NCBI GenBank assembly: GCA_963775225.1
Contig: CAVZHW010000007.1
Span: forward strand, 135,105-199,104
Reading direction: 5' to 3'
From: an uncultured Chloroflexia bacterium
Lineage (GTDB): Bacteria > Chloroflexota > Limnocylindria > Limnocylindrales > CSP1-4
Length of the DNA: 64,000 bases
This document shows positions 31,981 through 64,000 of the stretch, piece by piece. The notes below the pieces were generated by a model, which saw only the letters and a program-made list of their open reading frames with translations, made no database searches and was not told the DNA's origin. A program made the translations under genes and the position numbers. Numbering within the stretch: the first letter of the stretch is position 1; each line of letters opens with the position of its first letter.

Positions 31981-31991
31981 ACACAGCCCTG

Positions 31992-32000: not shown

Positions 32001-32006
32001 GGACAC

Positions 32007-32668: not shown

Positions 32669-32730
32669 CCGGACTCGGCGATCGCGTCTGATGGTCTCTT
32701 GGTAGTACTGGGTTGTGGGCGTGCCCGGCG

Positions 32731-34254: not shown

Positions 34255-34265
34255 GCCGCCAGTAT

Positions 34266-34280
34266 AACGACTTTTTCGTT
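34266..34280. promoter_or_regulatory. Palindrome AACGA-N5-TCGTT just upstream of ino1
   Basis: Perfect 5-nt arms at 34266-34270 and 34276-34280, 12 nt from the ino1 start. Possible operator; function unknown. Confidence 0.25.
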
Positions 34281-34401
34281 AGTCGGCTACTTGAGGGGGC
34301 GCGAGCTAGTACGGCTGGCTAAAGCGGTCACGCATCTGGTCCGTTGCGCACCAATCCCTCTTCGACCATCCTCAACGCACAGCTGCCACTAGGACCACTT
34401 C

Positions 34402-35763: not shown

Positions 35764-35964
35764 GGCCGTTCGACATCGCCGAAGTGGCGAAGAGATTGGC
35801 CGCGAGCCGGTCCTCCGCTGCCGAGAAGGCCAGCGCGACGACTCGGGAGAGAGGGCACGCTCAGCGATGCTGACGATCTGACGGAAGAACCACATCCGTG
35901 ATCACAGCCAGGTGGTAGACAGAAGAAACACCACGACTGACGCGCTCGCGCTAGCGTAAGTCTC

Positions 35965-37032
35965 GTGAACACGCTGCCGCTGCCGCTGTTGCTGGTCATC
36001 TTCGTGGCCGCCGGCGCAGCGGTGTGGCTGGCCGGAAGCAGGCTGTCGATGGCCACCGACGTACTCGACACGAAGCTCGGCCTCGGCGATGCGTTCGGCG
36101 GTCTCATCCTGCTCGCGATCGTCACCAACTTGCCCGAGATCGCGATCGTGGTCAGTGCGGCCCTGACTCACCAGGTGGGCATCGCCGTCGGAAACATCCT
36201 GGGCGGCATCGCCATGCAGACCCTGGTGTTGGTGCTCCTCGATGCCGTCGCAGTCCCCGGCACCAAGGCTCTCAGCTACCTTGGGGCGTCGCTGCTGGTG
36301 CTGCTCGAGGCAGGCATGGTGGTGGCGGTGTTGAGCATTACGGTGATGGGCAGCCAGCTGCCCGCGGGCCTCTTGCTGTGGCGGATCGACCCGGCCGCCC
36401 TGCTCATCGTCGTGGTCTGGGTAGCGGGACTTCTCCTGGTCCATCGCGCCCGCAAGGGGCTGCCCTGGCACGAGCAGGGGCAGCCGCCAGATGGCCAGAG
36501 CAAGGCGCGCGGGCACTCGAAGAAGGCCCGGGCCCAGGACGCGGTGGAGCGCGGCATGAGCACCAACCGTGCGGCTTTCGTGTTCGTGATCGGAGCAGCT
36601 GTGACCCTGGCCGCGGGCGCCCTGCTCGAGCTCAGCGGCGAAGGCATCGCCACGCAGGTCCACATGAGCGGGGTCCTCTTCGGGGCCACTGTGCTCGCCG
36701 CGGCGACCTCGCTGCCGGAGGTCTCGACGGGCCTGGCCTCGGTTCGAATGGGCGACTATCAGCTGGCCTTCGGCGATATCTTCGGAGGCAATGCCTTCCT
36801 TCCGGTCCTGTTCCTTGTCGCGAGCCTGCTGTCGGGCCAGGCGGTCGTGCCCCAGGCCCAGGTCACCGACATCTATCTGACCGGCCTTGGCGCGCTACTC
36901 AGCGTGGTGTATATGTTCGGGATCGTGTTTCGGCCGTCACGAACAATCGCGCGTGTCGGCCTCGACTCGGCTGTCGTTCTTCTCTTGTACCTGGTCGGGA
37001 TGGCCGGCCTGGTCGTCATCGGCACCTCGTGA
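35965..37032 (+). CDS. Ca2+/cation antiporter (CaCA, Na+/Ca2+-exchanger-like) family membrane protein
   Basis: Two alpha-repeat-like segments (GDAFGGLILLAIVTNLPE and GDIFGGNAFLPVLF) separated by a charged loop. Confidence 0.7.
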   Translation: MNTLPLPLLLVIFVAAGAAVWLAGSRLSMATDVLDTKLGLGDAFGGLILLAIVTNLPEIAIVVSAALTHQVGIAVGNILGGIAMQTLVLVLLDAVAVPGTKALSYLGASLLVLLEAGMVVAVLSITVMGSQLPAGLLLWRIDPAALLIVVVWVAGLLLVHRARKGLPWHEQGQPPDGQSKARGHSKKARAQDAVERGMSTNRAAFVFVIGAAVTLAAGALLELSGEGIATQVHMSGVLFGATVLAAATSLPEVSTGLASVRMGDYQLAFGDIFGGNAFLPVLFLVASLLSGQAVVPQAQVTDIYLTGLGALLSVVYMFGIVFRPSRTIARVGLDSAVVLLLYLVGMAGLVVIGTS

Positions 37033-37065
37033 GGACGGTCGACCAGGTGGGACGCATTGCCCGAG

Positions 37066-37494
37066 CTATTTCGTCAGTCGGAAGTACGTCCGGCTGCGAA
37101 TCTGCTTCTCGTCGAGCTCGTATCTGCCAGATCCCCAACGCTCGGGGCGCCTCATGATCGTGTACCAGACCATCTGTCCGAAGAACATCGCAGATCGATC
37201 GACGTCACCTAGCGCAGCCTTCCTGAAGATCGGCTCGAACGCCGTACCGGTCCAGTCGCTGCCGGGCAGCCAGCTTGACGTCGTGATCTCGGCGCCGCTC
37301 TCGTCGATGAGTTCGTTGATGCGCCCGACCATTGCATCGAACTCAGCAACGGACAGTCGACTCTTGAGAGTGTCGAACTGCCCTCGGTAGGGAATGAGGT
37401 CGATAGATCGCCCTGTGTCGATATCGATCAACATGCCCTCATTCTGACTGGTGCGGGCGTTCTGGCAACCGACAGCCGAGCGCGCCGTAGCCAT
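37066..37494 (-). CDS. Hypothetical protein (orphan, lower GC)
   Basis: ORF 37066-37569. The start is probably ATG 37494 or 37434, because the upstream part overlaps the AI-2E gene. I recognise no domain. Two 60-nt lines count 55-58% GC. Confidence 0.4.
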   Translation of the reverse strand: MATARSAVGCQNARTSQNEGMLIDIDTGRSIDLIPYRGQFDTLKSRLSVAEFDAMVGRINELIDESGAEITTSSWLPGSDWTGTAFEPIFRKAALGDVDRSAMFFGQMVWYTIMRRPERWGSGRYELDEKQIRSRTYFRLTK

Positions 37495-37501
37495 CGATTC
37501 C

Positions 37502-38647
37502 TCAGGACCGGACGACCTCAGCCTTGGCCGCTGGTTCTTCGGCAGAACTGTGCACGCCTGCAATCGCATGCTGGGCGACCTGGCTCTCGCGATCCTGCAC
37601 CCGCTCGAGGACAGCGACCAGGACGGCGGCCATGGGGACCGCGATCAGCGCGCCCACGATGCCCCCAAGAGATCCCCCGATCAGCAGAAAGAGGATGATG
37701 AGAAACGGTGAGACGCCGACCGCATTACGCATGACACGCGGGACCAGCACGTTGGCTTCGACGACTTGGATGACAGCGTATGCAATGACAACGGGCAACA
37801 GCGTCTCCGGCTTGAGGGTCGCCGCAACCAGGATTGCCGGCACCGCCCCAATGGCTGGGCCCACGAGAGGTACCGCCTCCGCTAATCCGGCGAAGACGCC
37901 CAGCGCGACCGCCGACGGCACCCCGATAACAAGGTATGCCACTCCGGCAGCGATCCCCATCGTGACCATCAGGATCAACTGGCCGCGCACCCAACCTCCC
38001 AGACGGATCTCGGCCTGATTCCAGGCGTCGCGGGTATCGGCCCTACGGGAGGCCGGGACGAAGCTCAGCACGAACCGCTGGAGATGAGATCTCTCGATCA
38101 ACCAGAAGTACATGAGCGTCAAGACCGTGACGGTTGAAACGACCACGTCGCCAATTGCCAAGCCCGCGGCGACCACCGTTCCTGCTTGAGCGCTGCCGCT
38201 CGGGTTGAGGGCTCTTTCGGCCGCGTTGATCAGGGCCTCTGCGCTCGTCGACAGGGCGCCCGGCAGAGACTCCCGCGCGAACGTGCGCGCGTGTTCCAAC
38301 GCGGTCGGCAGGGCAGCCATGAGCTGGCCAACCTCGTTGACCATTCCCGGAATGGCCACCAACCCAAACGCAACCAACGCCAGCGTGAATGTCCCGTAGA
38401 CCAGCAGAATTGCCGCGCCACGTGGAATCGGCAGCGCATCGCGAAGGCGACCGATCAGCGGCTCAAGCCCAGACGCCAGCAGTAGCGCGATGAACACGAG
38501 TAGCAGAACCTTCGATGCCGATACAAGCTCGGTCGCGATCGCATAGATGACCAGGCCGCCGCCCACGAAGCCGACCCCGCGCTCGAATTCGCGCGCGACC
38601 TCTGAGCGTCCAGACCGCCTGGGCTGATCCGCTGCCTCGTCGTTCAT
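37502..38647 (-). CDS. AI-2E family transporter (PerM/UPF0118)
   Basis: 381 aa polytopic protein. The GLAEAVPLVGPAIGAVPA motif region is typical of the family. Confidence 0.75.
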   Translation of the reverse strand: MNDEAADQPRRSGRSEVAREFERGVGFVGGGLVIYAIATELVSASKVLLLVFIALLLASGLEPLIGRLRDALPIPRGAAILLVYGTFTLALVAFGLVAIPGMVNEVGQLMAALPTALEHARTFARESLPGALSTSAEALINAAERALNPSGSAQAGTVVAAGLAIGDVVVSTVTVLTLMYFWLIERSHLQRFVLSFVPASRRADTRDAWNQAEIRLGGWVRGQLILMVTMGIAAGVAYLVIGVPSAVALGVFAGLAEAVPLVGPAIGAVPAILVAATLKPETLLPVVIAYAVIQVVEANVLVPRVMRNAVGVSPFLIILFLLIGGSLGGIVGALIAVPMAAVLVAVLERVQDRESQVAQHAIAGVHSSAEEPAAKAEVVRS

Positions 38648-47788: not shown

Positions 47789-48154
47789 TTGGTGAAGCTG
47801 GTCGTCGAAGAGCCGGAGTCTGTCGCCTTGCGGGCGTACCTGAGCGAGAGGGAGCCGCTGTACGCGAGCCGCATCGCTGCCGTTGAGCTGCGCCGGGCAG
47901 TCATGCGTCAGGCCGAGCGCGCTGCTGACGAACAGGCGGAGCTGGTGCTCGGCGCGCTGCGCATGATCGAGCTCGACGACGAGATGTCGCGCGCCGCCGG
48001 TGAGGCCGGGCCATCCACGCTGCGCACTCTCGATGCGGTCCATCTGTCGGCCGCGCTCGCTCTCGGCGATGAGTGCGACGCCTTCGTCTCCTACGACACG
48101 CGGCTCAACGCCGCTGCTCGTCGAGCCGGGCTCGAGGTTCGCTCGCCGGACTAG
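47789..48154 (+). CDS. vapC: PIN-domain toxin VapC (annotated from the first canonical start; the conserved N-terminus lies upstream)
   Basis: TLDAVHLSAAL and FVSYDTRL are PIN motifs. The frame is open from 47738 and codes NGVYVDTSA upstream of TTG 47789. That stretch holds the conserved N-terminal Asp, but no ATG/GTG/TTG is available in it. Confidence 0.7.
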   Translation: MVKLVVEEPESVALRAYLSEREPLYASRIAAVELRRAVMRQAERAADEQAELVLGALRMIELDDEMSRAAGEAGPSTLRTLDAVHLSAALALGDECDAFVSYDTRLNAAARRAGLEVRSPD

Positions 48155-50309: not shown

Positions 50310-50334
50310 CGGGCAAGGCTAACCTTGGGTGCAC

Positions 50335-52018
<1,684 letters not shown>

Positions 52019-52024
52019 AATCGC

Positions 52025-52053
52025 TTGACCCCCTCTATTGTGGGCACTACTGT
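52025..52053 (+). promoter_or_regulatory. Sigma-70-type promoter of tacAT
   Basis: TTGACC (52025-52030), 17 nt, TACTGT (52048-52053). It is followed by GTAC-rich palindromes (GTACGTAC, CCGTACGG) and an AAGGGA RBS before ATG 52086. Confidence 0.45.
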
Positions 52054-52085
52054 ACGTACGATATCCGTACGGTAAGGGACATCCG

Positions 52086-52376
52086 ATGACGGTCGCACGA
52101 TCAGCGACAAGAAAGGACGACAGGCTGGAGCTACGCCTCCGGCCGACCGAGCGCGCCCTGCTCGACGAGGCCGCGCACGCAAGCGCCATGACGACGAGCG
52201 CCTTCGTTCTTACGCACGCCACGGCTGCGGCTCAGGAAGTGCTCGCCGATCGCACGACCTTCGTCCTGCCGGCGGAGCGGTGGGATGCCTTCGTAGAACT
52301 CCTGGAGCGCGAGCCGCGACCGATGCCGGGTCTCGCCGCCTTCCTCGCCCGTCCGAGCGTTCTCGAACAGGAGTGA
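52086..52376 (+). CDS. tacA: DUF1778/TacA-type antitoxin
   Basis: ORF 52038-52376 trimmed to ATG 52086. RLELRLRPTERALLDEAAHASAMTTSAFVLTHA is the RHH-like DUF1778 pattern. Confidence 0.8.
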   Translation: MTVARSATRKDDRLELRLRPTERALLDEAAHASAMTTSAFVLTHATAAAQEVLADRTTFVLPAERWDAFVELLEREPRPMPGLAAFLARPSVLEQE

Positions 52377-52942
52377 GCCGCTACGGCCGGATAGAGCCGT
52401 TGGCACGCGACCATCACCTGGACGGCTTCGACTGCGGGTCTGAAGCGCAAACCACCTGGCTCCGACGCCACGCTCTTCAGGCGCACCAATCAGACACCGC
52501 CAAGGTCTACGTCGTATGCCGCGGTGGCTCTCGCGATGTCGTGGGCTACTACGCGCTCGCTGCCGGATCTGTCCTCCACGAGGACGTGCCGGACCGAGTC
52601 AAACGAGGTGCCGGGCGCTATCCCATACCAGTGGTCATTCTCACGCGCCTCGGCGTGGACGAGCGCGAGCAGCGACAGGGACTCGGTTCCGCTCTGGTCA
52701 AGGACGCGTTCCTCCAGACGGCATCGATAGCAGAGAAGATCGCCGTCCGCGCACTAGTTATCCATGCCGAGACGGCGGAGGCCGTCCAGTTCTACCGTCG
52801 GATCGATCCCGGCTTTGACGTGTCGCCGACCGACCCGCTGCACGTCCTGCTCCTGCTGAAGGATCTCCGGCTCGCCATTCAGGACGGTGCCTCCACCGAG
52901 GCCACCAAAGGTCCCGATCACGCTCTACGGGTCAGCCTCTGA
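52373..52942 (+). CDS. tacT: GNAT-family acetyltransferase toxin (TacT-like)
   Basis: GTG 52373 overlaps the tacA stop (GTGA). LDGFDCGSEAQTTWLRRHA, YYALAAGSV and LTRLGVDEREQRQGLGSALV are typical of TA-associated GNATs. Confidence 0.8.
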   Translation: MSRYGRIEPLARDHHLDGFDCGSEAQTTWLRRHALQAHQSDTAKVYVVCRGGSRDVVGYYALAAGSVLHEDVPDRVKRGAGRYPIPVVILTRLGVDEREQRQGLGSALVKDAFLQTASIAEKIAVRALVIHAETAEAVQFYRRIDPGFDVSPTDPLHVLLLLKDLRLAIQDGASTEATKGPDHALRVSL

Positions 52943-52944
52943 CA

Positions 52945-53111
52945 TCATTCGAGGAGCTCCCGCAGTTCGTCCCGGTCGATGCCCGTGACCCGAAGGATGC
53001 CCATCAGCGTGCCGTGTGATGGCTGCCGCTGACGCGATCAACGCGCCAGCCCTGGCGCTCCAGCGCCCGGATCAGTTGTCCCGGTTTGACGGCGGGCAGC
53101 CGTTCACTCAC
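52945..53111 (-). pseudogene. hicA: hicA toxin relic (internal deletion plus frameshift)
   Basis: GTG 53111 overlaps the hicB stop. VSERLPAVKPGQLIRALERQGWRVDRVSGSHH then runs into a stop at 53004. The C-terminal piece GTLMGILRVTGIDRDELRELLE is in another frame. The ~20-aa central strand region of HicA is missing. Confidence 0.6.
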
Positions 53112-53329
53112 TCCAGCCGGACGGCTATGCGTTCACGCAGGACCTGTTCAACAGGCCAGCCCTTCTCGCGGTGGACAGACAGGTACAGCTCGATGGCGTC
53201 GCGCGCCATGTCGAGCGCTTCCTCCCGAGTTCCCCCCTCCGTGATCACACCAGGGAGCTCAGGCACGGTGACGGTGAAGCCACCCTCGGCCTGCGGAACG
53301 AGCACGACCTCGTATTCCATCTCTTCCAT
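53108..53329 (-). CDS. hicB: HicB family antitoxin (UPF0150 fold)
   Basis: MEYEVVLVPQAEGGFTVTVPELPGVITEGGTREEALDMARDAIELYL. The start is ambiguous: TTG 53350, ATG 53329 or ATG 53320. Confidence 0.75.
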   Translation of the reverse strand: MEEMEYEVVLVPQAEGGFTVTVPELPGVITEGGTREEALDMARDAIELYLSVHREKGWPVEQVLRERIAVRLE

Positions 53330-53420
53330 CCCATGCAGCGTAACCCACAATCGGCGACCTTTGACGCGGTCGCCGCGCGAGCCTGCGCCATCATCCCACC
53401 CGCCACTTATCAGGCGCTTA

Positions 53421-53693
53421 TCAACCCCTGAAGACCGTGTCGGCGTGCCACTCGAGGTATTCGCGCGAGGGTGGCGGGTTGCCGGCGGCGGGTCGTCGGA
53501 TCTCGCGGCCGGCGAGGGCGTAGTAGTCGCGCCCGTTCTCGAACTCCGCGCGGATCGAGCGGCTGACGAGCAGTCGCAGGTCGGGCGAGACCGACACGTA
53601 GCCCTGGTCGAACAGGGTGTGCAGGTCCGACCGAAGCAGGAGGCCGTTGTCGGCCGCGTGCGGGCCCATCTGGCTCTACGGCTTGACGTGCAC
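53421..53693 (-). pseudogene. HNH endonuclease relic (C-terminal part, in-frame TAG, N-terminus missing)
   Basis: HVKP-TAG(53676-53678)-SQMGPHAADNGLLLRSDLHTLFDQGYVSV... matches the HNH core and tail. Upstream sequence is only antisense to the res gene region and has no HNH N-terminal part. Confidence 0.6.
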
Positions 53694-53786
53694 CTCCCTC
53701 GTCCTGCTCGAGTTGTTCTCCCGTGTCTTCCTGCGATAGCCTAGGCGGGCCGGGCAGGCAGCAAGAGGGGAGAGGGGCACAGTCGG

Positions 53787-56765
53787 TTGGCGCAGGGCGC
53801 ACCCACAGCCACGATCGACAACCCGGTCATCAACTCGCCGTTCGTCGAGCCACAGCGCCACTTCGTCATGGCCGACGGCCAACCCACCGGCGAGATCGCC
53901 GATCGTCGTCGACCATCTGAGTTCTTCGTTCCCGTCCCCCCGCCCAGGAAGAAGTCGGCTGCGCAGCTGACGCTGGACCAGTTCGGCATCACCAAGCAGC
54001 AACCGAACGAGATCGTCAACGAGATCCGTCAGTCGGTCGCGCGCTGGCGCCAGCAGGGATATCCGCACGCCACAACGGTCTCCCGCGACCTGCTGGCGTA
54101 CTGGCAGAGCGATGACCGGCAGCGAAAGCTCTTCTTCTGCCAGATCGAGGCCGCCGAGACGGCCATCTACCTGACCGAAGCGGCCGAGCGACTCGGCGAC
54201 ACCAGTGCGCCCAACCAGATCGCCCTCAACAACGCCCACTACAACGGCGGCCTGCCGCGCCTGGCGTTCAAGATGGCCACCGGCTCGGGCAAGACAGTGG
54301 TGATGGCGATGCTCATCGCGTGGCAGACGCTCAACAAGCAGGCCAACCCGCAGGATCGGCGCTTTTCCGACAAGTTCCTGGTCGTCACGCCGGGCATCAC
54401 CATCCGCGACCGGCTCCGTGTGTTGCTGCCTAACGACCCGCAGAACTACTACCAGGTGATGGACCTGGTCAGCGCCGAGCAGATCGACCGCCTGCAGTCG
54501 GCCACCGTCGTCATCGCTAATTACCACGGCTTCATTCGGCGCGAGACGATCCAGGCGGCGAGCCTGGACAAGAGGATCCTCTCGGCGGGGAGGGACGACG
54601 ACGCGTTCAAGGAAACGCCCGCGGAGACGGTCCGTCGCGTATGCCGCGACTTCGGCAGCTCAAAAAACATCGTGGTCATCAATGACGAGGCGCACCACTG
54701 CTACCAGCCGGCGCCGAAGGACGAGGCACAGCAAGAAGTCCTCAGCGCGGATGACCGCCAGCTGGCCAAGCAGGACCAGGAGGAAGCGCGCGTCTGGCTG
54801 AGCGGTTTGCAGGCAGTCGGCGAGAAGCTCGGCATTCGCTCCGTCTTCGACCTCTCCGCGACGCCGTTCTTCCTCAAGGGCTCCGGCTACCAGGAAGGGA
54901 CTCTCTTTCCCTGGGTCGTGAGCGACTTCGGGCTGATGGACGCCATCGAGAGCGGCATCGTCAAGATCCCGCGCGTGCCGGTGAGCGACGACTCGATGAC
55001 GGGCACGGGGCCTATGTACCGCGACCTGTGGCTGCGCGTGCGCGACGCACTGCCGCGCAAGGGCATCAAGGACACGCCGATCGACGGCCAGCCAAACATC
55101 CCCAAGGAGCTCGAGGGCGCGCTGCGCACGCTGTACGCCGACTACGAGCGGGACTTCGATGCCTGGGCGGAAGCCGGCATCGGCACGCCGCCGGTATTCA
55201 TCGTGGTCTGCTCCAACACGGCGACCTCGAAGCTGGTCTTTGACTGGATCGCCGGCTGGGACAAGGAGGGCATCGCGGTCCCCGGCAACCTGCCGCTGTT
55301 CTCGAATGAGCAGGACGGCCGGGTGCGCGAGCGGCCGAACACGATCCTGGTCGACTCGGCCCAACTCGACAAGGACGAGTCGCTCGATCCGGCATTCCGC
55401 AAGGCGGCGGCGACCGAGATCGAGACCTTCAAGCGCGAGTACGTCACGCGCTTCCCCGGACGCAGCGCGGAGGACATCACGCCCGAAGACATCATGCGCG
55501 AGGTCATGAACACGGTCGGCAAGCCGGACAAGCTGGGCGAGGCCATTCGCTGCGTCGTATCGGTGTCGATGCTGACCGAGGGCTGGGATGCCAACACGGT
55601 CACGCACATCCTGGGCATCCGCGCCTTCGGCACGCAGCTGCTGTGCGAGCAGGTCGTGGGCCGGGCGTTGCGGCGGGCCAGCTACGACGCCGACGAAAAC
55701 GGCATGTTCGATGCGCAGTACGCGGAGGTGTACGGCGTGCCGTTCAGCTTCCTTTCTGTGGCGGGGAAGGGGAGGGTCAAGCAGGCCAGGCCGGTGATGG
55801 TCGTCCGCGCGCTGCCCGCGCGGGAGAACCTGCGCATCGAGTTCCCGCGGGTGACCGGATACCGCTTCGACATGCCCACCGAGCACCTGCAGGCGCGCTT
55901 CGACACGTCATCGAACCTCGAACTCTCGACGCGCGACGTGGCCCTGCATACCGAGGTGGACCCGATCGTTGGCGAGCGCGAACTGCATACGCTTGACGAC
56001 CTGCGCAACGTGCGCATGCAGACGGTCGAGTTCACGATCGCCAAGCGCACGCTCGACAACCACTTCCGTGATGGTGACGGCGGCGAGCGGCCGTGGCTCT
56101 TCCCGCAGCTCGTCCGGATCACGCACGACTGGATCCGCGACTGCGTGCACCTCAAGGACAACGCCTTCCCGCAGATGCTGCTGTTCGTCGAGTACAGCCA
56201 CGCGGCGGCAGACCGGATCAACCAGGCGATCGTGTCGGGCACCAGCGGCGAGAAGCGGCTGACGGCCATCCTGCGCCCGTACGAGCCCATCGGCTCGACC
56301 GACTACGTCTACTTCGAGACGACCAAGACCTGCTTCGACACGACCAAGAGCCACATCAACCGCGTCGTCCAGGACTCGGGCTGGGAGTCAAAGCTGGCCG
56401 AGGTGCTCGAGTCGATGCCCGAGGTCGTGGCCTACACCAAGAACCAGGGGCTCAACTTCAAGATCCCCTACACCTACGAGGGGAGGGCGGCCAACTACGT
56501 GCCCGACTTCCTGATCCGCCTGCGCGATGGCGCCTCGACCGGCGACGACGACCTGCTGACCCTCGTGCTCGAGGTGACCGGCGAGGCCAAGAAGGAGAAG
56601 CAGGCCAAGGTAGCAACTGCCCTGAATCTGTGGATCCCGGCCGTCAACAACTGGGGCGGCGCCGGCCGCTGGAAATTTCTTGAGGTGACCGATCCTTGGG
56701 ATGCTGAGAACCTGATCCGCAAGAAGTTCCTCTCGACGAAGTTGACAACTACGCAAAGTGCGTAG
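53787..56765 (+). CDS. res: Type III restriction-like Res subunit (SF2 helicase with C-terminal PD-(D/E)xK nuclease motif)
   Basis: 992 aa, TTG start after a GGGGAGAGGGG stretch. Walker A MATGSGKTVVMAM, motif II VVINDEAHHC, motif VI QVVGRALRR. C-terminal YVPDFLIRL...LVLEVTGEAKKEK is PD...ExK-like. Confidence 0.85.
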   Translation: MAQGAPTATIDNPVINSPFVEPQRHFVMADGQPTGEIADRRRPSEFFVPVPPPRKKSAAQLTLDQFGITKQQPNEIVNEIRQSVARWRQQGYPHATTVSRDLLAYWQSDDRQRKLFFCQIEAAETAIYLTEAAERLGDTSAPNQIALNNAHYNGGLPRLAFKMATGSGKTVVMAMLIAWQTLNKQANPQDRRFSDKFLVVTPGITIRDRLRVLLPNDPQNYYQVMDLVSAEQIDRLQSATVVIANYHGFIRRETIQAASLDKRILSAGRDDDAFKETPAETVRRVCRDFGSSKNIVVINDEAHHCYQPAPKDEAQQEVLSADDRQLAKQDQEEARVWLSGLQAVGEKLGIRSVFDLSATPFFLKGSGYQEGTLFPWVVSDFGLMDAIESGIVKIPRVPVSDDSMTGTGPMYRDLWLRVRDALPRKGIKDTPIDGQPNIPKELEGALRTLYADYERDFDAWAEAGIGTPPVFIVVCSNTATSKLVFDWIAGWDKEGIAVPGNLPLFSNEQDGRVRERPNTILVDSAQLDKDESLDPAFRKAAATEIETFKREYVTRFPGRSAEDITPEDIMREVMNTVGKPDKLGEAIRCVVSVSMLTEGWDANTVTHILGIRAFGTQLLCEQVVGRALRRASYDADENGMFDAQYAEVYGVPFSFLSVAGKGRVKQARPVMVVRALPARENLRIEFPRVTGYRFDMPTEHLQARFDTSSNLELSTRDVALHTEVDPIVGERELHTLDDLRNVRMQTVEFTIAKRTLDNHFRDGDGGERPWLFPQLVRITHDWIRDCVHLKDNAFPQMLLFVEYSHAAADRINQAIVSGTSGEKRLTAILRPYEPIGSTDYVYFETTKTCFDTTKSHINRVVQDSGWESKLAEVLESMPEVVAYTKNQGLNFKIPYTYEGRAANYVPDFLIRLRDGASTGDDDLLTLVLEVTGEAKKEKQAKVATALNLWIPAVNNWGGAGRWKFLEVTDPWDAENLIRKKFLSTKLTTTQSA

Positions 56766-57410
56766 ATGCTTCCCAGTATGGCCTCAGTTCTTACACCCAC
56801 GGCCGCCAGCGCCCTAATCGTGATCGATGAGCTCGACTCAGCCTCCCTGACCGACATCGCTCGCCTGGGCGGTAAGGCCGTGTCCACTGTCCAACGCGCC
56901 CTGAGCACGCTGACCGCGTCGAATGTTTTGACTCGAGAGTGGAACCGCGGCCCGTACACATTTTCGCCGGGAGTGCCACGGTCGGCGCTGCGAGAGCTGG
57001 CCAACTGGACTCTGGGGCCCAAGGAGAGGGCGCGACTTAAGGGCGCGCTGCAGATGTCGAATGGGGCTGAGGCTTCCGGTGCGCCCAAGACCATTACCAA
57101 TCCGCGTATTCGCCGCGCTTGGCCACATGCAATCAGGCGAATTGTTTCTAACTACCACCCCAAGCAGGTCGTGCTCTTCGGCTCCCAATCACGGGGAGAT
57201 GCGAAACCCGACAGCGATGTGGACCTGCTTGTGGTGTTCGATCGCGTGCCGGACCGTCGGGAACGGAGCATCCAGTTGATGGGCCTCCTGAGTGACATGC
57301 CGTTTGCCAAGGACGTTCTCGTTGTCGGCGCTAAGGACACCATCCACCCGCTCCGCGGGAGCGCACTTGCCGATGCGCTCAAGAACGGTGTCGTCGTCTA
57401 TGAGAGATGA
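56766..57410 (+). CDS. Winged-HTH plus minimal nucleotidyltransferase (MNT) protein
   Basis: ATG directly abuts the res stop (TAGATG). N-terminal wHTH (LTDIARLGGKAVSTVQRALSTLTASNVLTRE). C-terminal MNT motif LFGSQSRGDAKPDSDVDLLVV. Confidence 0.8.
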   Translation: MLPSMASVLTPTAASALIVIDELDSASLTDIARLGGKAVSTVQRALSTLTASNVLTREWNRGPYTFSPGVPRSALRELANWTLGPKERARLKGALQMSNGAEASGAPKTITNPRIRRAWPHAIRRIVSNYHPKQVVLFGSQSRGDAKPDSDVDLLVVFDRVPDRRERSIQLMGLLSDMPFAKDVLVVGAKDTIHPLRGSALADALKNGVVVYER

Positions 57411-57822
57411 AGACAGGGCAGACGCTTTGACGTGGCTCTCGTACGCGTTCGGCGATCTGGCCGAGGCACGGTCGCAACCCGGTCGACCTAGCAGGCCGCG
57501 CATCGTGGCATTCCACGCTCAGCAAGCGGCGGAGAAGGCGCTCAAAGCAGCCTTGGTTCTCTCGGATGTCGATCCACCGCGGACTCACGAGTTGGAACAG
57601 TTGCGAGCGCTGCTGCCGATGGACTGGCGCGTACGGCTCAACCCTCGAGACCTTCGACGGCTGTCGCGCCACGGAGTGGATGCGCGATATCCAGATGACC
57701 TGGAGCACGTGCCAACCCTCGCGGCGGCAACGGCGGTTCGCCAGGCAATCGCGGTTGTTCGACTGGTTCGTGAGGACTTCGAGCGCCGTGGCGTACGGAC
57801 AGAAGGGCTGACCCCGCAGTGA
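57400..57822 (+). CDS. HEPN-domain protein (partner of the MNT)
   Basis: ORF 57292-57822 trimmed to ATG 57400 (11-nt overlap with the MNT gene). AFHAQQAAEKALKAALV...PRTHELEQL...ARYPD is the HEPN pattern. Confidence 0.75.
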   Translation: MRDEDRADALTWLSYAFGDLAEARSQPGRPSRPRIVAFHAQQAAEKALKAALVLSDVDPPRTHELEQLRALLPMDWRVRLNPRDLRRLSRHGVDARYPDDLEHVPTLAAATAVRQAIAVVRLVREDFERRGVRTEGLTPQ

Positions 57823-57840
57823 GTAAGCCGGAGCTAAGCG

Positions 57841-60450
57841 GTGGCTGACAAACTTAAGGGCAAGACCACGCCTGTCCGCGCCTACCCGCACCCGTCGGAC
57901 AGCCGCGCCAACATCCCCACCGCCGAGCTCGAGTCGTTCGCCCGCCCCGAAGAGAAGAGGCCCGCGACCGTGCGCTACCCACGCGACCCCACACTCGACC
58001 CGCAACTCGTCTGGAAGGGCAAGGACGAGCAGGACGGCCACGACCTCGAGGTCCCGGCCGTCCCGATCTACATCCAGGAGACGATCGACCCGCTGGCGCT
58101 GATCGAGGAGTTGCGCGCCGAGAGCGAGGGCCGGCGCAGCGAACAGCAGCTCGGCTTCTTCGGCCCGTACAACGACCTGTCCTTCGAGGAGAAGGTCGAC
58201 TTCTACCGCCACGCCGGCAAGTGGACCAACAGGATGATCCTGGGCGACTCGCTGCTGGTCATGACCAGCCTGGCCGAGAAGGAAGGCCTGAAGGGCCAGG
58301 TCCAGACCATCTACGTGGACCCGCCCTACGGCATCAAGTTCGGCTCGAACTGGCAGGTCTCGACGCGCAAGCGCGACGTGCGCGACGGCAAGGACACCGA
58401 CCTGACGCGCCAGCCCGAGCAGGTGCGCGCGTATCGGGACACCTGGGAGCTCGGCATCCACTCGTACCTGAGCTACCTGCGCGATCGGTTGGCCGTGGCT
58501 CGGGAGCTGCTAACCGAGTCAGGCTCGATTTTCGTCCAGATTGGCGACGAGAATGTCCATCTCGTCCGGTCGGTGCTAGATGAGACGTTCGGGGCGACCA
58601 ACTTCGTGTCGCTCATACCGTTTGCTAAGACTGGCGGCCAAGCCGATCTCGCCCTTGGCGCCGTGGTCGACTATGTGATCTGGTACGCGAAGGATCGCGA
58701 CCGCGTCAAGGCTCGCCCGCTTATGCAGACGAAAAGTCGCGGCGGCACCGGTTCAGGTGAGTACTCATGGGTCCACCTACCCGACGGAACGCGCCGGCGT
58801 GCCACGAAGGAGGAGTCTGATAATCCCTCGCTCCTGCCCACAGCCACGCGCTTCTTCATCCCAGACAACTTGACGTCGGCCGATGTAACCGCGACGGGCA
58901 CATTTGACTACTCGGTTGATGGCCAAACGTTCTTTCCGAAGGGCGGGCATTGGAAGACAACCCGAGACGGCCTCGACCGACTTGGCGTCGCGGGCCGGCT
59001 GATAGTTCAGGGCGTCACGCTTCGCTACGTGCGGTACTACGACGACTTCCCCGTAACGCCGATGAGCAATCTCTGGGCAGATACGGCAGCACGCGGCTGG
59101 TTCGAGGACAAGGTATACGTCGTACAGACGACCGGCCGCGTGATTGAGCGCTGTTTGCTGATGACCACTGACCCGGGCGACCTCATAGTCGACCCCACTT
59201 GCGGATCAGGTACGGCTGCGTACGTGGCTGAGGGCTGGGGGAGGCGCTGGATCACGATCGACACCAGTCGCGTCGCGCTCGCTCTCGCCCGCTCGCGCCT
59301 CATGGCCGCCAAGTACCCGTACTACCTGCTCGCCGACTCGGAGCTCGGCGCCCGGAAGGAAGCCGAGGTTGGCGGCATCGCGCCACCGATGGCCTCCGCC
59401 TACGGCAACGACGTCCGGCGCGGCTTCGTCTACGAGCGCGTGCCGCACGTGACCCTCAAGTCGATCGCCCAGAACCCCTACATCCGCGAGGGCATGACGC
59501 GCGAGGAGATCGACGCCTCGATCGCCCGCCACGCCGAGACCGAGACGCTCTTCGACCGACCGTACGAGGACAAGAAGGCCGTTCGCGTGTCGGGCCCGTT
59601 CACCGTCGAGAGCCTGTCACCCCACCGCGTCTTGCGCACCGGGCCGGAGGACGAGGGCGCCGAGCCGCCGCCTTCGGCGCCTGACTCCGGCCAGTTCGTA
59701 ACCAGCATCCTCGACAACCTGCGCCGGGCCGGCGTCCAGAACACCAAGCGCGCGGAGCGCCTCGAGTTCAGCCGACTCGACCCATACCCGGGCGTCTATA
59801 TCCAGGCGACCGGCGAGTACGCCGAGAACAGCCACAGGAAGACGGTCGCGGTGGCGATCGGGCCTGAGTTCGGCACCGTCGGCCCCGAGCTAATCCGCGA
59901 CGCCGCCAAAGAGGCTGTCAAGATCGCCGATCTGCTCGTAGTTTGCGGCTTCGCATTCGACCCGCTGGCAGGGGAGGAGGCCCGCGAGCTCGGTCGCCTG
60001 ACCGTGCTCCAGGCGCGCATCTCGCCGGACCTGCTGGTCGGCGGGCTGAAGAACACCGGCGCCGGCAACCTCTTTCAGGTCTTCGGCGAGCCCGACATCG
60101 ACGTGCGGGAAACTTCCGACAACCAGCTGGTGGTAGAGATCCGGGGGCTGGACGTCTACGACCCGACCACAGGCCAGGTGCGCTCGAACGACATCGACGA
60201 CATCGCCGCCTGGTTCCTCGACACCAACTACGACGGCGACGCCTTCTTCGCCCGCCACGCGTACTTCACGGGCGCCGACGACCCCTACGACCGCCTCCGC
60301 CGCGCCCTGAGGGCTGACATTTCCCATGAGGCTTGGGCGACCGTCAACTCGAACAGCAGCCGAGCCTTTCCGCGCCCCTCCACCGGCAAGATCGCCGTCA
60401 AGGTCATCAACCACTATGGGGATGAAATCATGAAGGTGCTCGCAGCTTGA
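57841..60450 (+). CDS. mod: Beta-class N6-adenine/N4-cytosine DNA methyltransferase (Type III-like Mod)
   Basis: 869 aa. GTG follows GGAG. Motif IV VDPPYGIKF (~58315) precedes motif I DPTCGSGTAAYVAE (~59190), with a ~290-aa variable region between them. This is the beta-class order IV-TRD-I. Confidence 0.85.
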   Translation: MADKLKGKTTPVRAYPHPSDSRANIPTAELESFARPEEKRPATVRYPRDPTLDPQLVWKGKDEQDGHDLEVPAVPIYIQETIDPLALIEELRAESEGRRSEQQLGFFGPYNDLSFEEKVDFYRHAGKWTNRMILGDSLLVMTSLAEKEGLKGQVQTIYVDPPYGIKFGSNWQVSTRKRDVRDGKDTDLTRQPEQVRAYRDTWELGIHSYLSYLRDRLAVARELLTESGSIFVQIGDENVHLVRSVLDETFGATNFVSLIPFAKTGGQADLALGAVVDYVIWYAKDRDRVKARPLMQTKSRGGTGSGEYSWVHLPDGTRRRATKEESDNPSLLPTATRFFIPDNLTSADVTATGTFDYSVDGQTFFPKGGHWKTTRDGLDRLGVAGRLIVQGVTLRYVRYYDDFPVTPMSNLWADTAARGWFEDKVYVVQTTGRVIERCLLMTTDPGDLIVDPTCGSGTAAYVAEGWGRRWITIDTSRVALALARSRLMAAKYPYYLLADSELGARKEAEVGGIAPPMASAYGNDVRRGFVYERVPHVTLKSIAQNPYIREGMTREEIDASIARHAETETLFDRPYEDKKAVRVSGPFTVESLSPHRVLRTGPEDEGAEPPPSAPDSGQFVTSILDNLRRAGVQNTKRAERLEFSRLDPYPGVYIQATGEYAENSHRKTVAVAIGPEFGTVGPELIRDAAKEAVKIADLLVVCGFAFDPLAGEEARELGRLTVLQARISPDLLVGGLKNTGAGNLFQVFGEPDIDVRETSDNQLVVEIRGLDVYDPTTGQVRSNDIDDIAAWFLDTNYDGDAFFARHAYFTGADDPYDRLRRALRADISHEAWATVNSNSSRAFPRPSTGKIAVKVINHYGDEIMKVLAA

Positions 60451-63067
60451 GCGACTCACTGTTCTCCAAGTGGTACTTGGCCGACCTCCATGTTCATACC
60501 GTCGCGGACGCAAACCACCGATACCAAACAAGCAACCTTGACAAGGAGCCGAACGCAGCATTCGCCACTGAGCTCATCGAAGCGTCTTCCTCTGCAGGTG
60601 TGTCCGTCATCGCCGTGACCGATCACAACCGTGTCGACTGGTGGCCCGCTTTGCGAGACGCGGCGAAGAGGCGCGGCATCACCGTCTTTCCAGGGATTGA
60701 GATCAGTGTGAACCGTTGTCATCTCATCGGGATCTGGGAGGCAACTGCCGAGGGCTACGCACTCGCACAACGCTTTGCCAGCGGAATCCACCGTCCGGGA
60801 CAGTCGCCGTACGTTCATGGGAGTCCCCGGCCTGTGGCTAGCGGCAATGTGGAAGAAAACGCACGCAAGATCGTCGACCATGCCGGCCTTGTGCTCGCGC
60901 CGCACTCCACGAATCGTGGGCTCGGCTTCTTTGGCCCCGGTGTCTGCTCGAACTCCGATGAGATCGCACAGTCCGGCCTCATCTCCGCGTTTGATGTCTT
61001 TGGCAATCCGGGCGCCGACGTCTTGCAGAATCCAAGGTCGCAGTTCGGTGATGCGCTGCCGAGATGGATCCTAACCGGGGACACGCGATCGTTCGATGAT
61101 ATTGCACAGCGAGCCATATATCTCAAGCTTGGTGCACGTCCTACGCTCGAGGGCCTCCGGCAGGCGTTCCTGTCTCCAACCACGCGTATTCGCTTCCCCG
61201 AATCGACTCGGAGTGACTGGGGTCGTGTCAAGGGCGTTGCATTCACGAATGACGTCAGGCCGGCCTGGCCGCGATTGAGTCGACTGACTATCAAAGGAGG
61301 CTTTCACGATGGTCTCGAACTCCAGTTCGGCCCAGGCCTGAACGCCCTGATCGGGGGAAAGGGCACAGGCAAGTCAGCTGTCATCGAGATCATTCGTCAC
61401 GTTGTCGGAGCACTGCAACCGAACGAACGGTCTTTACTCGACAATCGTGCCCGGAACTTCCCGCAAATGCCGACGCTGAGATCACATTCATAGACAGCGA
61501 TGGCCAAGAATACTTGGTCCAACGAAGCGGTGGCAGCAGTCCCCCGCAGCTGCTAGTCGCTGGCGTGAAGAGCGAAGTGTACGTCTCACGTCGAGTGACC
61601 TTGAACATCTTTGGCCAGAGGCAACTTGGTGAGCTGGCATCCTCCGGTGCTCTCCGAGAGTTTCTGGCGCGGGGCCTCGCTGACGACTGGACCGCGCAGC
61701 TGGAGACTCAGCGCTTGCTCGTCCGCGACCTAGAGTCGAACGCTGCCGCCCTCGCATCAAAGGAGACTGCTCTCACCGATCTGGAGGACAAGGCCGCCGA
61801 GCGAAGCGACTACGTTGAGCGTATTGAACGCGCTCGCGCTGCCGGCGCTGACAAGGTCATAGCCAAGCTACAAGGCTTGAGTAGGGACAATCAGAAGTAT
61901 CGGCGGGCTCAGCAGTGGCCGGGAACCGCGTCCGATGCACTGCAGAAAGTCGCGGAATTGCTACCGCCGCCCACGCCGCCAAACGATCCTCCCGACATGG
62001 CCGAACTCGGAAGAAGCCTCACGGACGCCGGTGCCGCGATCTCACAGGCCCTCGACGACGCGACTGACGCCGTGGTGAAGTCCTCCGACGCCGTCAAGAC
62101 CGCGCGCGCAGTCTGGCTTGAGCACTACGAGCGACAGAAAGCGGTACTCGAAGGTGAGCTTGCAGCCGTGGGCATATCGAATCCCGCCGATCTCGCTGCA
62201 TGGCAGGGAAGACTTAGTGAGCTAGACGACGAACTGAGTGCTCTACCTACTGCGCGCTCATCCCGCTCGGCGCTCCTTAAGCAAAGGGAAGAGTTGCTGA
62301 CGCGATTGAGGGCCGGTTGGCGCGCGAAATCACGTCTTATCGAACAGGCAGCCGCGCGAGTTGCAACGTTGCTACCGCCTCGCGTAAGGCTCGTCACAGG
62401 CACTTTGCGTGATAGAACTGCATTCCGGACGGCGCTCGAACGTGCGGTTCAGGGCCAAGGAGTCCGCAGTGAGCAACTGGACAAGCTGTCAGTGCTCGAC
62501 CCGTCTACCGTTCTGAAGGCCGCGGAGACAGGGGTCGACGAACTCGTATCCCTCGGCGTAACAGCAAACACTGCCGCCAAGCTGGCGGCCATTTCTCCAA
62601 CAGAGCGCAGATCGATCGAGCTAGCGGAGATCCAAGACGAAGTTACCGTCGAAATGGACCCGTCGCCAGGTGGAACAGGCGAATGGCGGAATATTGGCGA
62701 TGTCTCTCCCGGCCAGCGCGCGACAGCACTCCTAGCGCTTGTCTTGGTCGGAGGCCACGAACCTCTAATCATCGATCAGCCAGAAGACGACCTCGATAAC
62801 CGCTACATATACGAAGAGGTCGTAGGCGTCTTAGGCCGGACCTGCGAGAAACGCCAGGTCATCGTTGCCACCCACAACGCCAACATACCGATCCTTGGCG
62901 ACGCTGAACTGATCGTGGCTCTCGATGCGTCCGCGACCCGTAGCAAAGTCATCGCAATGGGCGGGCTGGAGCTATCCAACGTCGCCGATTCGGCGCGGAC
63001 CATCCTCGAAGGAGGCGAGGAAGCGTTCCTCGCGAGGTCTCAGCGCTACTTGGGCACACGGACCTAG
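60447..63067 (+). CDS. PHP phosphoesterase fused to a Rad50/SMC-like ABC ATPase with a coiled coil, frameshifted
   Basis: TTG 60447 overlaps the mod stop (TTGA). PHP motifs: ADLHVHT, AVTDHN, GIEIS, APHS. Walker A GGKGTGKSA. The frame switch at ~61461-61466 (…NRARNF / ANADAEITFIDSDGQEYLVQR) joins ORF 60447-61493 to ORF 61514-63067. The second ORF has a ~300-aa Ala/Leu/Glu/Arg-rich helical region, then signature SPGQRA, Walker B LIIDQPEDDLD and H-loop ATHNANIP. Confidence 0.8.
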
Positions 63068-63149
63068 GCATTAACGGTACATAACTTCTCTTATCGGCAG
63101 TACCACGAGTTAGCCGGTGAGTGTGGGCAGACCTTCGGAAAAGTGACTT

Positions 63150-63557
63150 TCAGCCGGTGACGGAAAAGCCGAGGGCGGTAGCTGCGACCGAGAACTCGCG
63201 ATCATGGGTGGCAACCGTCACGTCGCCAAACTCATCGCGCAGGGCGAGAGCCGTCGCGAGGTGGATTGCGTCGAGCGTTCGCAAAGAGGTCGGGAACGGC
63301 TCGGCAGCTCGCTCGAGCAGCTCAGCGGAGACCGATACCAGCGCGATGCCGGCCACAACGGCGAGCGCTGCATTGCGCAGGCGCGCAGTGGTTTCGTCAT
63401 CCAGCCGCTGACTCAACCTCGTGCGATCGATGACGCGCAAGGACTCGACCCGCAGTAGCTCACTCGATACCGGGTGGTCGCCCTGCCAGCCAGTCAACTG
63501 GTCTGGTTCGCCGAAGAGCATGCGCAGGACGACTGACGAGTCGACGTATGTCGTCAA
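63150..63557 (-). CDS. vapC: PIN-domain toxin VapC
   Basis: MTTYVDSSVVLRML (N-terminal Asp), TLDAIHLATAL, VATHDREF. 4-nt overlap with vapB. Confidence 0.8.
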   Translation of the reverse strand: MTTYVDSSVVLRMLFGEPDQLTGWQGDHPVSSELLRVESLRVIDRTRLSQRLDDETTARLRNAALAVVAGIALVSVSAELLERAAEPFPTSLRTLDAIHLATALALRDEFGDVTVATHDREFSVAATALGFSVTG

Positions 63558-63808
63558 CGCCGGCCTCGCTCCTCCATGAGCAGCTCCAGGGAGCTCACTG
63601 GCAGATTGAGCGGCGGGTAGCTCCTGTTGATCACCTCCGCCAGGGAGCGTGTGGGTTCACGGATGACCAGGCGCGAATGCCGCTCGACTGGTACCAGGCG
63701 CGCGATCGCCCGATCATGATCGGTCACCTCGATGACCTCGCCCTTCTCCACCAAGCGCAGGTTCTTCGAGAGGTTGTTCTTGAGTTCGGCGACTCCGACC
63801 CGTTGCAT
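63554..63808 (-). CDS. vapB: Phd/YefM-type antitoxin of a VapBC module
   Basis: MQRVGVAELKNNLSKNLRLVEKGEVIEVTDHDRAIARLVP. Start set at ATG 63808 because of the promoter geometry. The ORF track starts at 63847. Confidence 0.75.
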   Translation of the reverse strand: MQRVGVAELKNNLSKNLRLVEKGEVIEVTDHDRAIARLVPVERHSRLVIREPTRSLAEVINRSYPPLNLPVSSLELLMEERGRR

Positions 63809-63813
63809 GGCCA

Positions 63814-63843
63814 TATCTAGCCATGACATGACCACAATGTCAA
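63814..63843 (-). promoter_or_regulatory. Consensus-like promoter placed for a leaderless vapB mRNA
   Basis: On the minus strand: TTGACA (63843-63838), 18 nt, TAGATA (63819-63814), 5 nt, ATG 63808. Confidence 0.5.
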
Positions 63844-63868
63844 GCATGGCGCCGGTCTCGAAGGACGC

Positions 63869-64000
63869 TCACGCGAGCGCGCGGTCGACGTCGGTCGGTG
63901 TGATGACTTCGACCACGGCGCTGACGCGCGTCGCTAGTCGCGCGTCACTCGTCACCAATGGAGCGCCAAGGCGCTGCGCGAGGGCGACGTATTCGGCGTC
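63869..64000 (-). CDS. C-terminal part of another PIN-domain (VapC-like) toxin, gene continues past the window end
   Basis: Reading from 64000: DAEYVALAQRLGAPLVTSDARLATRVSAVVEVITPTDVDRALA-stop. The 'D..Y.ALA...g.pL.T.D..l' pattern is the PIN C-terminal motif. Confidence 0.6.
   Translation of the reverse strand, partial: DAEYVALAQRLGAPLVTSDARLATRVSAVVEVITPTDVDRALA

Follow-up and report, generated by a model that had tools for sequence, protein, structure and literature searches.

The PHP-ATPase Ppl was reportedly described by Gao et al. in 2020 as a single-gene antiphage system. Ppl is reported to be a nucleoside triphosphate (NTP)-inhibited 3'-5' single-stranded DNA exonuclease that senses 3'-OH ends (PMC12904381). 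Defense genes also occur nested within larger systems: passages of a preprint by Payne et al. (bioRxiv 10.1101/2024.01.29.577857) describe genes nested in Hma, BREX, DISARM and Type I restriction-modification (R-M) systems and the use of this nesting for discovery, passages of PMC12839542 describe auxiliary or backup HEPN, minimal nucleotidyltransferase (MNT) and Schlafen effectors in BREX and DUF499 systems, and passages of PMC3710099 and PMC12707154 deal with HEPN genes in R-M operons and with the PrrC paradigm. Our subject here is a run of five co-oriented genes on the plus strand (positions 53787-63067) of a 64,000-nucleotide stretch of contig CAVZHW010000007.1, from an uncultured Chloroflexia bacterium, a stretch referred to throughout as the window. 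The genes are res, a winged helix-turn-helix (wHTH)-MNT gene, a HEPN gene, mod and a TrlF-like PHP-ATPase gene, and a first-pass annotation, made by a model from the sequence alone, had read them as one composite, restriction-like defense system. The analyses described below lead to another reading, namely that the locus is probably a modular stack of known defense parts on a Type III-like R-M operon and not one five-gene machine.

The Five-Gene Locus

Much of the first-pass annotation held up. The junctions it had described were recovered to the nucleotide: the res stop TAG (56763-56765) abuts the ATG at 56766, the MNT gene (end 57410) overlaps the HEPN gene (ATG 57400) by 11 nt, HEPN (end 57822) and mod (GTG 57841) are separated by an 18-nt gap with a GGAG, and the mod stop TGA (60448-60450) overlaps the TTG start (60447) of the PHP-ATPase gene as TTGA. 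The motifs it had singled out are present in the translations, i.e., MATGSGKT, NDEAHH and PDF...GEAK in Res, DPPY before DPTCGSGTAAY in Mod, GSQSRGD..DSDVDLLVV in MNT, PRTHELEQL in HEPN, and, in the fifth gene, DLHVHT, TDHN and GIEIS of the PHP domain and GGKGTGKSA, SPGQRA, LIIDQPEDDLD and ATHNANIP of the ATPase. Its domain assignments for the five genes were borne out by Pfam, NCBIfam and PADLOC-DB profile searches. Where it went astray was in counting five intact open reading frames (ORFs): the genes, their junctions and their motifs are real, but the PHP-ATPase is split over two frames, a frameshift that had been overlooked. It knew of no named system with this arrangement, and the searches agree in that no single PADLOC-DB, NCBIfam or Pfam family scanned matches more than one of the five genes; the tight gene packing makes the co-expression it proposed plausible, and its notion of a layered defense was judged reasonable.

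A single obligate system, with methylation as the license of self DNA and with HEPN and PHP-ATPase effectors that would depend on Res and Mod, can be argued for from the layout: the genes lie on one strand, stop and start codons overlap, and no plus-strand terminator above chance stands between them (terminator-like hairpins occur at chance level across 53300-63600). The neighborhoods of related genes point the other way. Relatives of Res were collected by a scan of one genome per species, which produced 71 loci, mostly in metagenome-assembled genomes (MAGs) of Chloroflexota and also in Actinomycetota, Cyanobacteriota, candidate phyla radiation (CPR) bacteria and archaea. In none of the 71 does a TrlF gene lie next to this (BPTD_3080) res/mod family, and none was present in the sister contigs. 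Those sister contigs that share the left flank of the window, a HicB gene and an HNH_2 fragment on the minus strand (L159-L161), have blastn homology to the window that ends at 60442, at the mod stop codon, and downstream of mod the sisters carry other genes, either a reverse transcriptase (RT) with a Ymh-type HEPN, or Schlafen-AlbA_2/HATPase_c_4, or Thoeris-like TIR genes. In addition, the G+C content at third codon positions (GC3) is 0.90 in Res and 0.86 in Mod, against 0.71 in MNT, 0.66 in HEPN and 0.65-0.66 in the two parts of TrlF, and this sharp difference between the R-M genes and the other three points to a mosaic origin of the operon. With TrlF missing in 71 of 71 res/mod loci and in the sister contigs alike, the locus is not one obligate five-gene system; neighborhood analysis has largely refuted that reading, which we now consider highly improbable, and TrlF is not a partner of this res/mod family.

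The company that TrlF keeps elsewhere bears on the same question. Its loci, 85 in number, were gathered by an alignment-based contig scan, a single-protein scan having returned one locus. The close relatives of the window's TrlF are 41-73% identical to it and are found in varied settings: five of the seven close-clade contexts examined have no adjacent R-M system and the other two (L073 and L074) lie downstream of an unrelated methyltransferase/helicase module; the settings also include integrative elements, beside integrases or AbiE (L075/L076, L246-L249), and housekeeping contexts, behind a protein of 572-625 amino acids (aa). That most close relatives sit in integrative elements or housekeeping contexts, and that the TrlF ORF is interrupted in the window, are further points against an obligate five-gene system. 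In its favor, TrlF does recur beside methyltransferase-helicase systems, since a DUF1156 or Type III-like methyltransferase was present within 7 kb of TrlF in 16 of the 85 loci, 12 of these being of the DUF1156/DUF499 (Hma) type and 4 Type III-like; a motif-based count of methyltransferases near TrlF gave 29/85, to be taken as a rough upper bound. Based on this variety of contexts, TrlF is best regarded as a module that stands by itself and is to some degree inclined to travel within methylase-based systems.

Two observations on these loci deserve mention. The 572-625-aa protein that precedes TrlF (L250, 6020-7897; P0043 contig) has no Pfam match, has a 4-nt overlap in the P0043 contig, and may be an unrecognized partner of TrlF. 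Canonical TrlF together with Schlafen-AlbA_2/HATPase_c_4 was found nested in DUF1156/DUF499/SNF2-NOV_C (Hma-type) loci (L083, L091, L092, L116, L123, L137, L155 and L156), and in L116 an MNT and HEPN pair also lies within the Hma-type locus.

The Type III-like Core and Its Cargo Slot

The res gene (53787..56765, plus strand) encodes a Type III-like helicase-nuclease of 992 aa that belongs to the BPTD_3080 family, as it matched the NCBIfam model for that family of restriction endonucleases (NF046055) at 1175.7 bits, with a cut-off of 800, over positions 1-969 of the 970 in the profile. Pfam ResIII was matched at 47.6 bits and the GSGKT and DEAH helicase motifs are present, as is a C-terminal PD...EAK motif, the Pfam RE_endonuc score for which (16.4 bits) was under the cut-off of 23.4. 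Res fails the model of the canonical Type III endonuclease, NCBIfam PRK15483 (14.6 bits, cut-off 564), its best PADLOC REase_III score was 29.9 bits, and sequence and profile searches of the PDB with Res gave no match. The mod gene (57841..60450, plus strand) encodes a beta-class N6-adenine DNA methyltransferase of 869 aa, with a score of 925.7 bits on PADLOC MTase_III PDLC03632 and a match to Pfam N6_N4_Mtase. Its DPPY (residue ~150) comes before its DPTCGSGTAAY (residue ~440), the order of the beta class (motif IV before motif I; FxGxG). The center of Mod (~58600-59100) is non-homologous in all close relatives and is flanked on both sides by DNA that is 76-93% identical, the blastn homology of mod to L001-L003 and L159-L162 being interrupted at 58584-59160. 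From this pattern of conservation the central segment is probably the target-recognition domain, and it would then follow that sister loci differ in their methylation specificities.

Both res and mod are present in 49 of the 71 loci, and it is on those 49 that the counts of gene order and spacing rest. They form the only conserved pair, no flanking gene being conserved, and res precedes mod in 47. In 12 loci fewer than 300 bp lie between them, in the remaining 37 the gap measures 556-8606 bp, and the contents of this slot, as annotated with Pfam and PADLOC, are mostly co-oriented and very diverse. Among its cargos are DUF1883-TIR (PADLOC PDC-S66/ThsB-like), PDDEXK_4, an HD phosphohydrolase, an AAA_15/21 ATPase with DUF4276 (PADLOC HEC-01A/B), GmrSD_N, a protein without known function with DUF5131 (PADLOC PDC-M41A/B), AbiEi/AbiEii, DUF3800, IS200/IS605 and several families without a match. 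The slot is sharply bounded and corresponds to ~56720-57818 in the window, as blastn homology to L001-L003 in Res ends at ~56719 and resumes in Mod at ~57818-57832. In a neighbor-joining tree of Res the basal lineages are without cargo, and within the window's clade the loci with MNT-HEPN are interspersed with loci that hold TIR, PDDEXK_4 or unknown cargo. The position after mod also often holds co-oriented defense genes, e.g., an OLD-family ATPase-TOPRIM, AIPR, UvrD-PD-(D/E)xK, paraMORC-like or STAND genes.

Replicons outside the Chloroflexota MAGs provided instructive variants. In Rhodococcus and on two cyanobacterial plasmids, res and mod are adjacent. Plasmid pAQ5 of Picosynechococcus sp. 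PCC 7002 (L251, record 29469-38071) has Res, UPF0175, DUF3368 and Mod, followed by a 624-aa hypothetical gene, and plasmid pRS11DPr6 of Methylomagnum ishizawai (L255) has Res, a 173-aa ORF, Mod and, 18 nt further on, a CBASS cGAMP-activated phospholipase and then a nucleotidyltransferase, all of them co-oriented. Of these hosts, PCC 7002 is a cultured, genetically tractable cyanobacterium, and its UPF0175/DUF3368 pair is toxin-antitoxin (TA)-like. Some slot proteins of ~200-280 aa without a Pfam or PADLOC match recur, namely those of cluster c0 (L018-L020, L025, L026 and L065) and cluster c7 (L018, L029 and L031), and by the logic of embedding they are candidate defense genes.

The wHTH-MNT/HEPN Cassette

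In the window the slot is occupied by two genes. The first (56766..57410, plus strand) encodes a minimal nucleotidyltransferase that has an IclR/MarR-like winged helix joined to its N terminus, with matches to Pfam NTP_transf_2 and Polbeta, weak ones to HTH_IclR/MarR, and a match to the PADLOC candidate PDC-S09. It belongs to a distinct family of ~100 homolog clusters with members of ~210 aa each, in which GS...DxD is invariant (G139, S140, D151 and D153). The conserved start is probably the second ATG, at 56778, and not that at 56766, as Met5 is nearly invariant and most homologs have 210 aa. The second gene (57400..57822, plus strand) encodes a HEPN protein of the PF05168/HEPN-T type (Pfam HEPN E = 1.2e-17, with weak matches to PDB 1UFB and 1WOL), a predicted RNase toxin. 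Across 28 distinct HEPN sequences of the family there is no variation in an E-x3-K motif, in the RTHEL His or in the RYP Arg, and the downstream His of the canonical Rx4-6H is not conserved; the window's HEPN thus conforms to an alternative-His HEPN-T type that is described in passages of PMC3710099.

A conserved, promoter/operator-like element stands in front of these two genes. At ~56742-56768 (plus strand) is the motif TTGACA-N2-TACGCA-N3-TGCGTA-GAT, which occurs once in the window, where none is expected by chance, and in exact form in 18 of the 250 fetched loci, in each case a short distance before a wHTH-MNT gene, be that gene an embedded or a free-standing one. Every wHTH-MNT gene is preceded by the motif, 9-10 nt before the conserved Met. 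We read it as a putative -35 box and a palindromic operator for the wHTH, which would yield a near-leaderless transcript, and the wHTH-MNT protein is probably both antitoxin and autorepressor. The blastn homology to stand-alone copies is limited to ~56741-57823, and in both the window and L159 the res stop codon TAG lies inside the motif, so that the last codons of res are cassette-derived.

The first-pass annotation had joined MNT and HEPN to this res/mod pair in one system, and the association is far above chance in one subclade; overall, though, the pair is one of many slot cargos and also occurs by itself. Look-ups and a metagenome scan identified the Res-MNT-HEPN-Mod block in L159-L161 (Res 82-87% and MNT 64% identical) and in L162/L163 (Res 75%, MNT 51%). 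Three incomplete loci fit the block: L166 (Res 82%, MNT 78%, HEPN 92%), where the contig ends inside HEPN, L157, which has an extra TacA/TacT pair between res and MNT and ends before any mod, and L169, where MNT and HEPN are followed by a mod fragment. The same MNT-HEPN family is stand-alone in at least 13 loci (L164/L165, L167, L168 and L170-L179), and smaller MNT-HEPN pairs without the wHTH occupy the same slot in L012, L184, L192 and L205.

Several of these observations weigh against a purely modular locus. Within the window's subclade the four genes are inherited together, and across 75-87% Res identity their block has kept its overlaps and 18-nt spacing, a persistence for which functional coupling is an equally possible cause; MNT-HEPN pairs of several lineages have entered the slot repeatedly, which hints at more than chance; the generic sigma-70 scan of 53300-63600 called no site, the cassette motif included, so that the promoter reading draws on conservation; and some affinity of TrlF for methylation-based systems is possible, as ~19% of its loci adjoin DUF1156 or Type III-like methyltransferases. 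The first of these is what one would expect if MNT-HEPN were a PrrC-like guard of the R-M system, its HEPN kept inactive while Res and Mod work and released when a phage blocks restriction, and/or if the cassette promoter and its wHTH controlled mod. Such a role would also accord with the divergence of MNT/HEPN, which tracks that of Res (85/64, 82/78 and 75/51% identity), with the tight and conserved junctions, mod starting 18 nt after HEPN and downstream of the cassette motif, and with the precedents of PrrC in EcoprrI and of HEPN genes in R-M operons in passages of PMC3710099 and PMC12707154. The cassette family, however, exists without Res or Mod in the stand-alone loci listed above, among them L164/L165, from a genome whose flank is 95% identical, sister Res lineages hold unrelated cargo in the slot, the HEPN has its own antitoxin and hence needs no R-M partner to be kept silent, and there is no fused ABC ATPase as in PrrC. 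On this evidence a guard function, the main rival of the modular reading, appears unlikely.

A stronger form of coupling can be envisaged, in which cassette and R-M system are functionally connected: mod would be transcribed from the autoregulated promoter of the cassette, in the manner of C-protein-like establishment control, and a block of restriction would set off HEPN. We consider this quite doubtful, but were it true, the guardian would be an integral and yet replaceable part of a Type III-like R-M system, and recombination in the conserved res/mod flanks could exchange it from strain to strain.

The TrlF-Family Gene and Its Frameshift

The fifth gene begins as a PHP phosphoesterase domain and Walker A motif in an ORF at 60447..61493 (plus strand), which is genuine coding sequence to ~61463 and out of frame thereafter. 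The rest of the protein, a coiled coil followed by SPGQRA, Walker B and the H-loop, is encoded in frame -1 at 61463..63067 (plus strand; the ORF was listed from 61514). Three-frame translation places the stop of frame 0 at 61493 and the remainder in frame 2. The break falls at 61455..61466 (plus strand), where the window reads AACTTCCCGCAA, one base short of the AAC TTY CCC GCR of its homologs. About 120 TrlF homologs are single proteins of ~870 aa with a conserved NF(R/P)ANA at the break point, and in a DNA alignment with the closest of them (L073, 73% identical) the window is one base short in AAC-TT(C)CCCGCA.

The identity of the gene was assessed with the two halves both apart and rejoined. 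On NCBIfam NF045780 (TrlF_fam_ATP) the 5' part scored 153.6 bits over profile positions 3-342 and the 3' part 208.7 bits over positions 405-943; rejoined across the 1-nt deletion, the protein scored 371.7 bits, marginally above the cut-off of 350. On this model, the one that the first-pass annotation had named, each fragment as encoded stays below the cut-off, and the fifth gene is a marginal member of the TrlF family. Pfam matches of the 5' part, to PHP, AAA_23 and SMC_N, were weak. The comparison with Ppl in the first-pass annotation is apt as regards the architecture, a PHP domain plus an ABC-type ATPase, but the rejoined protein fails the Ppl model NF042955 (136 bits, cut-off 1000) and is for that reason not Ppl; PADLOC Ppl gave 31 and 73 bits on the halves.

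An AlphaFold (AF2) model of the 73% identical homolog P0001, with a mean predicted local distance difference test (pLDDT) score of 85.5, begins with an alpha/beta (PHP) domain and has an ATPase head of the SMC/Rad50 type, into which a long coiled coil is inserted. Its best PDB matches in Foldseek were Smc, MukB, JetC, Rad50, RecF and AriA, and sequence and profile searches of the PDB with TrlF found only SMC, Rad50, ABC and AriA heads and no structure of Ppl or TrlF. Literature searches with the name "TrlF" gave unrelated matches only.

Programmed -1 frameshifting was considered as an explanation for the split gene and rejected, as there is no slippery heptamer and all homologs are single ORFs. 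The lack of a slippery heptamer, with a -1 shift in the sequence as given, is also what a real lesion would leave, in which case the fifth gene would be a decaying pseudogene and only the four-gene block functional. Gene callers split the gene, one product (P0002, 500 aa) being recorded from the source contig, and defense cargo at the post-mod position turns over fast. Set against this is the state of the assembly. Housekeeping ettA, ~10 kb upstream, has one extra base at ~50586 relative to the intact 574-aa ortholog in L002 (this ABC-F/EttA-like gene, at 50330-52018 on the plus strand, has its Walker A part and its remainder in different frames), and the related long contigs L160 and L161 are full of frameshifts. 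These two circumstances make the 1-nt deletion in TrlF probably an assembly error. The indel, moreover, is a single one; apart from it no conserved motif is missing from either half, and the two still score as TrlF. Assembly error is accordingly clearly the likelier explanation, and decay of the gene, though a serious candidate, the less probable one.

A Layered Working Model

The data show the family identities, the slot, the extent and motif of the cassette, and the pattern of co-occurrence. How a modular stack of this kind would operate can be pictured in three layers, the enzymatic roles being assigned by analogy. In the first, the conserved core of Res and Mod, Mod would mark self DNA and Res would cut unmarked DNA. 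The second would be the autonomous, self-promoted cassette in the res-mod slot, composed of the -35-like box and operator, wHTH-MNT and HEPN. Here the HEPN would be an RNase toxin that MNT restrains, probably by nucleotidylylation as in other MNT-HEPN modules, with MNT also repressing the cassette promoter via its wHTH; were MNT lost or inactivated during infection, HEPN would be freed and the cell arrested. The third layer would be the post-mod position, a second, strain-variable slot that holds, in this instance, a TrlF-family PHP-nuclease/ABC-ATPase, and that gene most likely acts alone, in a Ppl-like manner. What links the modules may simply be that the operon supplies expression and a recombination-friendly scaffold, and there is no evidence that any of them needs the others.

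The Surrounding Island

The genes on either side of the locus are in keeping with a region rich in TA modules. TacA-like and GNAT (TacT-like) genes lie at 52038-52942 (plus strand) and have 76% DNA identity to the TacA/TacT pair of L157. As the latter pair is in the res-MNT gap, the same small modules evidently move between positions in these islands. Just upstream of res, on the minus strand, are a HicB-like antitoxin gene and an 82-aa HNH_2 fragment (53108-53669). In L164/L165 the left flank is 95% identical and there is no res or mod; an MNT-HEPN cassette (66% identical) lies between HicB and a longer HNH_2, and a 63-bp segment that corresponds to 53427-53489 is present on both sides of the L164/L165 insert. 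After 63067 there are vapBC-type genes on the minus strand, a VapC-type PIN toxin (63150-63557) and a Phd/YefM antitoxin (63554-63847), and the 3' end of a second PIN-like ORF (63150-64000 region, minus strand) runs off the end of the window. A further PIN gene is at 47789-48151 (plus strand). No integrase is visible near the locus, a repeat search around the five genes detected neither direct nor inverted repeats at their flanks of the sort expected of a mobile element, and no Rfam families or tRNAs were found within the window. The locus is a strain-variable defense and TA island.

Comparison with Known Systems

The core of the locus most resembles the Type III R-M systems of the EcoP1I/EcoP15I type, with which it shares a two-subunit composition, a Mod that is a beta-class N6-adenine methyltransferase and varies in its central region, and a Res in which superfamily 2 (SF2) helicase motifs occupy the N-terminal part and a PD-(D/E)xK motif the C-terminal part. 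Canonical Type III enzymes, as Res2Mod2 or Res1Mod2 complexes, cleave with the help of ATP at unmethylated sites in inverse orientation. It differs in that res precedes mod, the opposite of the canonical order, in that the two are usually parted by cargo where the canonical pair is adjacent, in a C-terminal extension of Mod of ~390 aa, and in the distance of Res from the curated model of the canonical Type III enzyme.

The cassette has its nearest counterpart in the type VII TA system HepT/MntA, in which, as here, an MNT gene with an intact GS...DxD overlaps the downstream gene (by 11 nt in the window) of a HEPN protein that is the predicted toxin. In HepT/MntA the antitoxin silences the toxin by AMPylation. 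The window's HEPN, however, is of the PF05168 (HEPN-T) and not the DUF86/HepT type, and its conserved His is upstream of the canonical Rx4-6H position; its MNT scores 37.6 bits on the NCBIfam MntA equivalog model, under the cut-off of 60, and carries the additional N-terminal wHTH. With PrrC in EcoprrI (Type Ic), as it is described in passages of PMC3710099 and PMC12707154, the cassette has in common a HEPN-superfamily RNase gene inside an R-M operon as a possible second line of defense. PrrC is one polypeptide that includes an ABC ATPase and is silenced by the R-M complex, whereas the HEPN of the window is served by a dedicated partner, wHTH-MNT, and by a promoter-like motif of its own, and the pair also occurs without an R-M system.

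The fifth gene shares with Ppl and the TrlF family the fusion, in one gene, of an N-terminal PHP domain to an ABC/SMC-type ATPase with a coiled coil inserted in it. Canonical members of TrlF, with scores above 500 bits, differ from it in the Schlafen-AlbA_2/HATPase_c_4 gene that lies directly downstream in 48/85 loci, a partner that is a pattern drawn from the 85 loci of the present analysis and not a curated criterion. It is absent here, and the close clade L072-L082 is likewise without it.

The arrangement as a whole is that of the embedded systems known through guilt-by-embedding, which, in the passages of the preprint by Payne et al., consist of same-strand genes nested inside a methylase-based system with a content that varies between related loci. 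Several of their cargo families are present in the slot, i.e., HEC-01, PDC-M41, PDC-S66, GmrSD and AbiE, and the window's MNT is a match to PDC-S09. The difference from the embedded systems in those passages lies in the host, here a Type III-like R-M family that has one slot with sharp boundaries and another after mod. Neither a Type III-like host nor the BPTD_3080 R-M family is mentioned in the term-searched passages of bioRxiv 10.1101/2024.01.29.577857, PMC12839542, PMC3710099 and PMC12707154, and "type III" appears in those of the preprint only as "DRT type III".

As every component family has been described and nesting has been published, the locus does not represent a novel type of immune system. 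The novelty lies in its host, BPTD_3080, an R-M family that is widespread and little studied and that has a sharply bounded slot, occupied in about three quarters of the loci examined, as well as another variable site behind mod. In sister strains one chromosomal site bears differing downstream defense genes, which amounts to a natural experiment, and pAQ5 of Picosynechococcus PCC 7002 offers a tractable model in which to ask whether embedded TA cassettes guard or regulate the R-M system around them. Discovery through guilt-by-embedding, until now associated in the passages cited above with Hma, BREX, DISARM and Type I R-M, thereby extends to Type III-like systems, in whose slot several families without known function reside.

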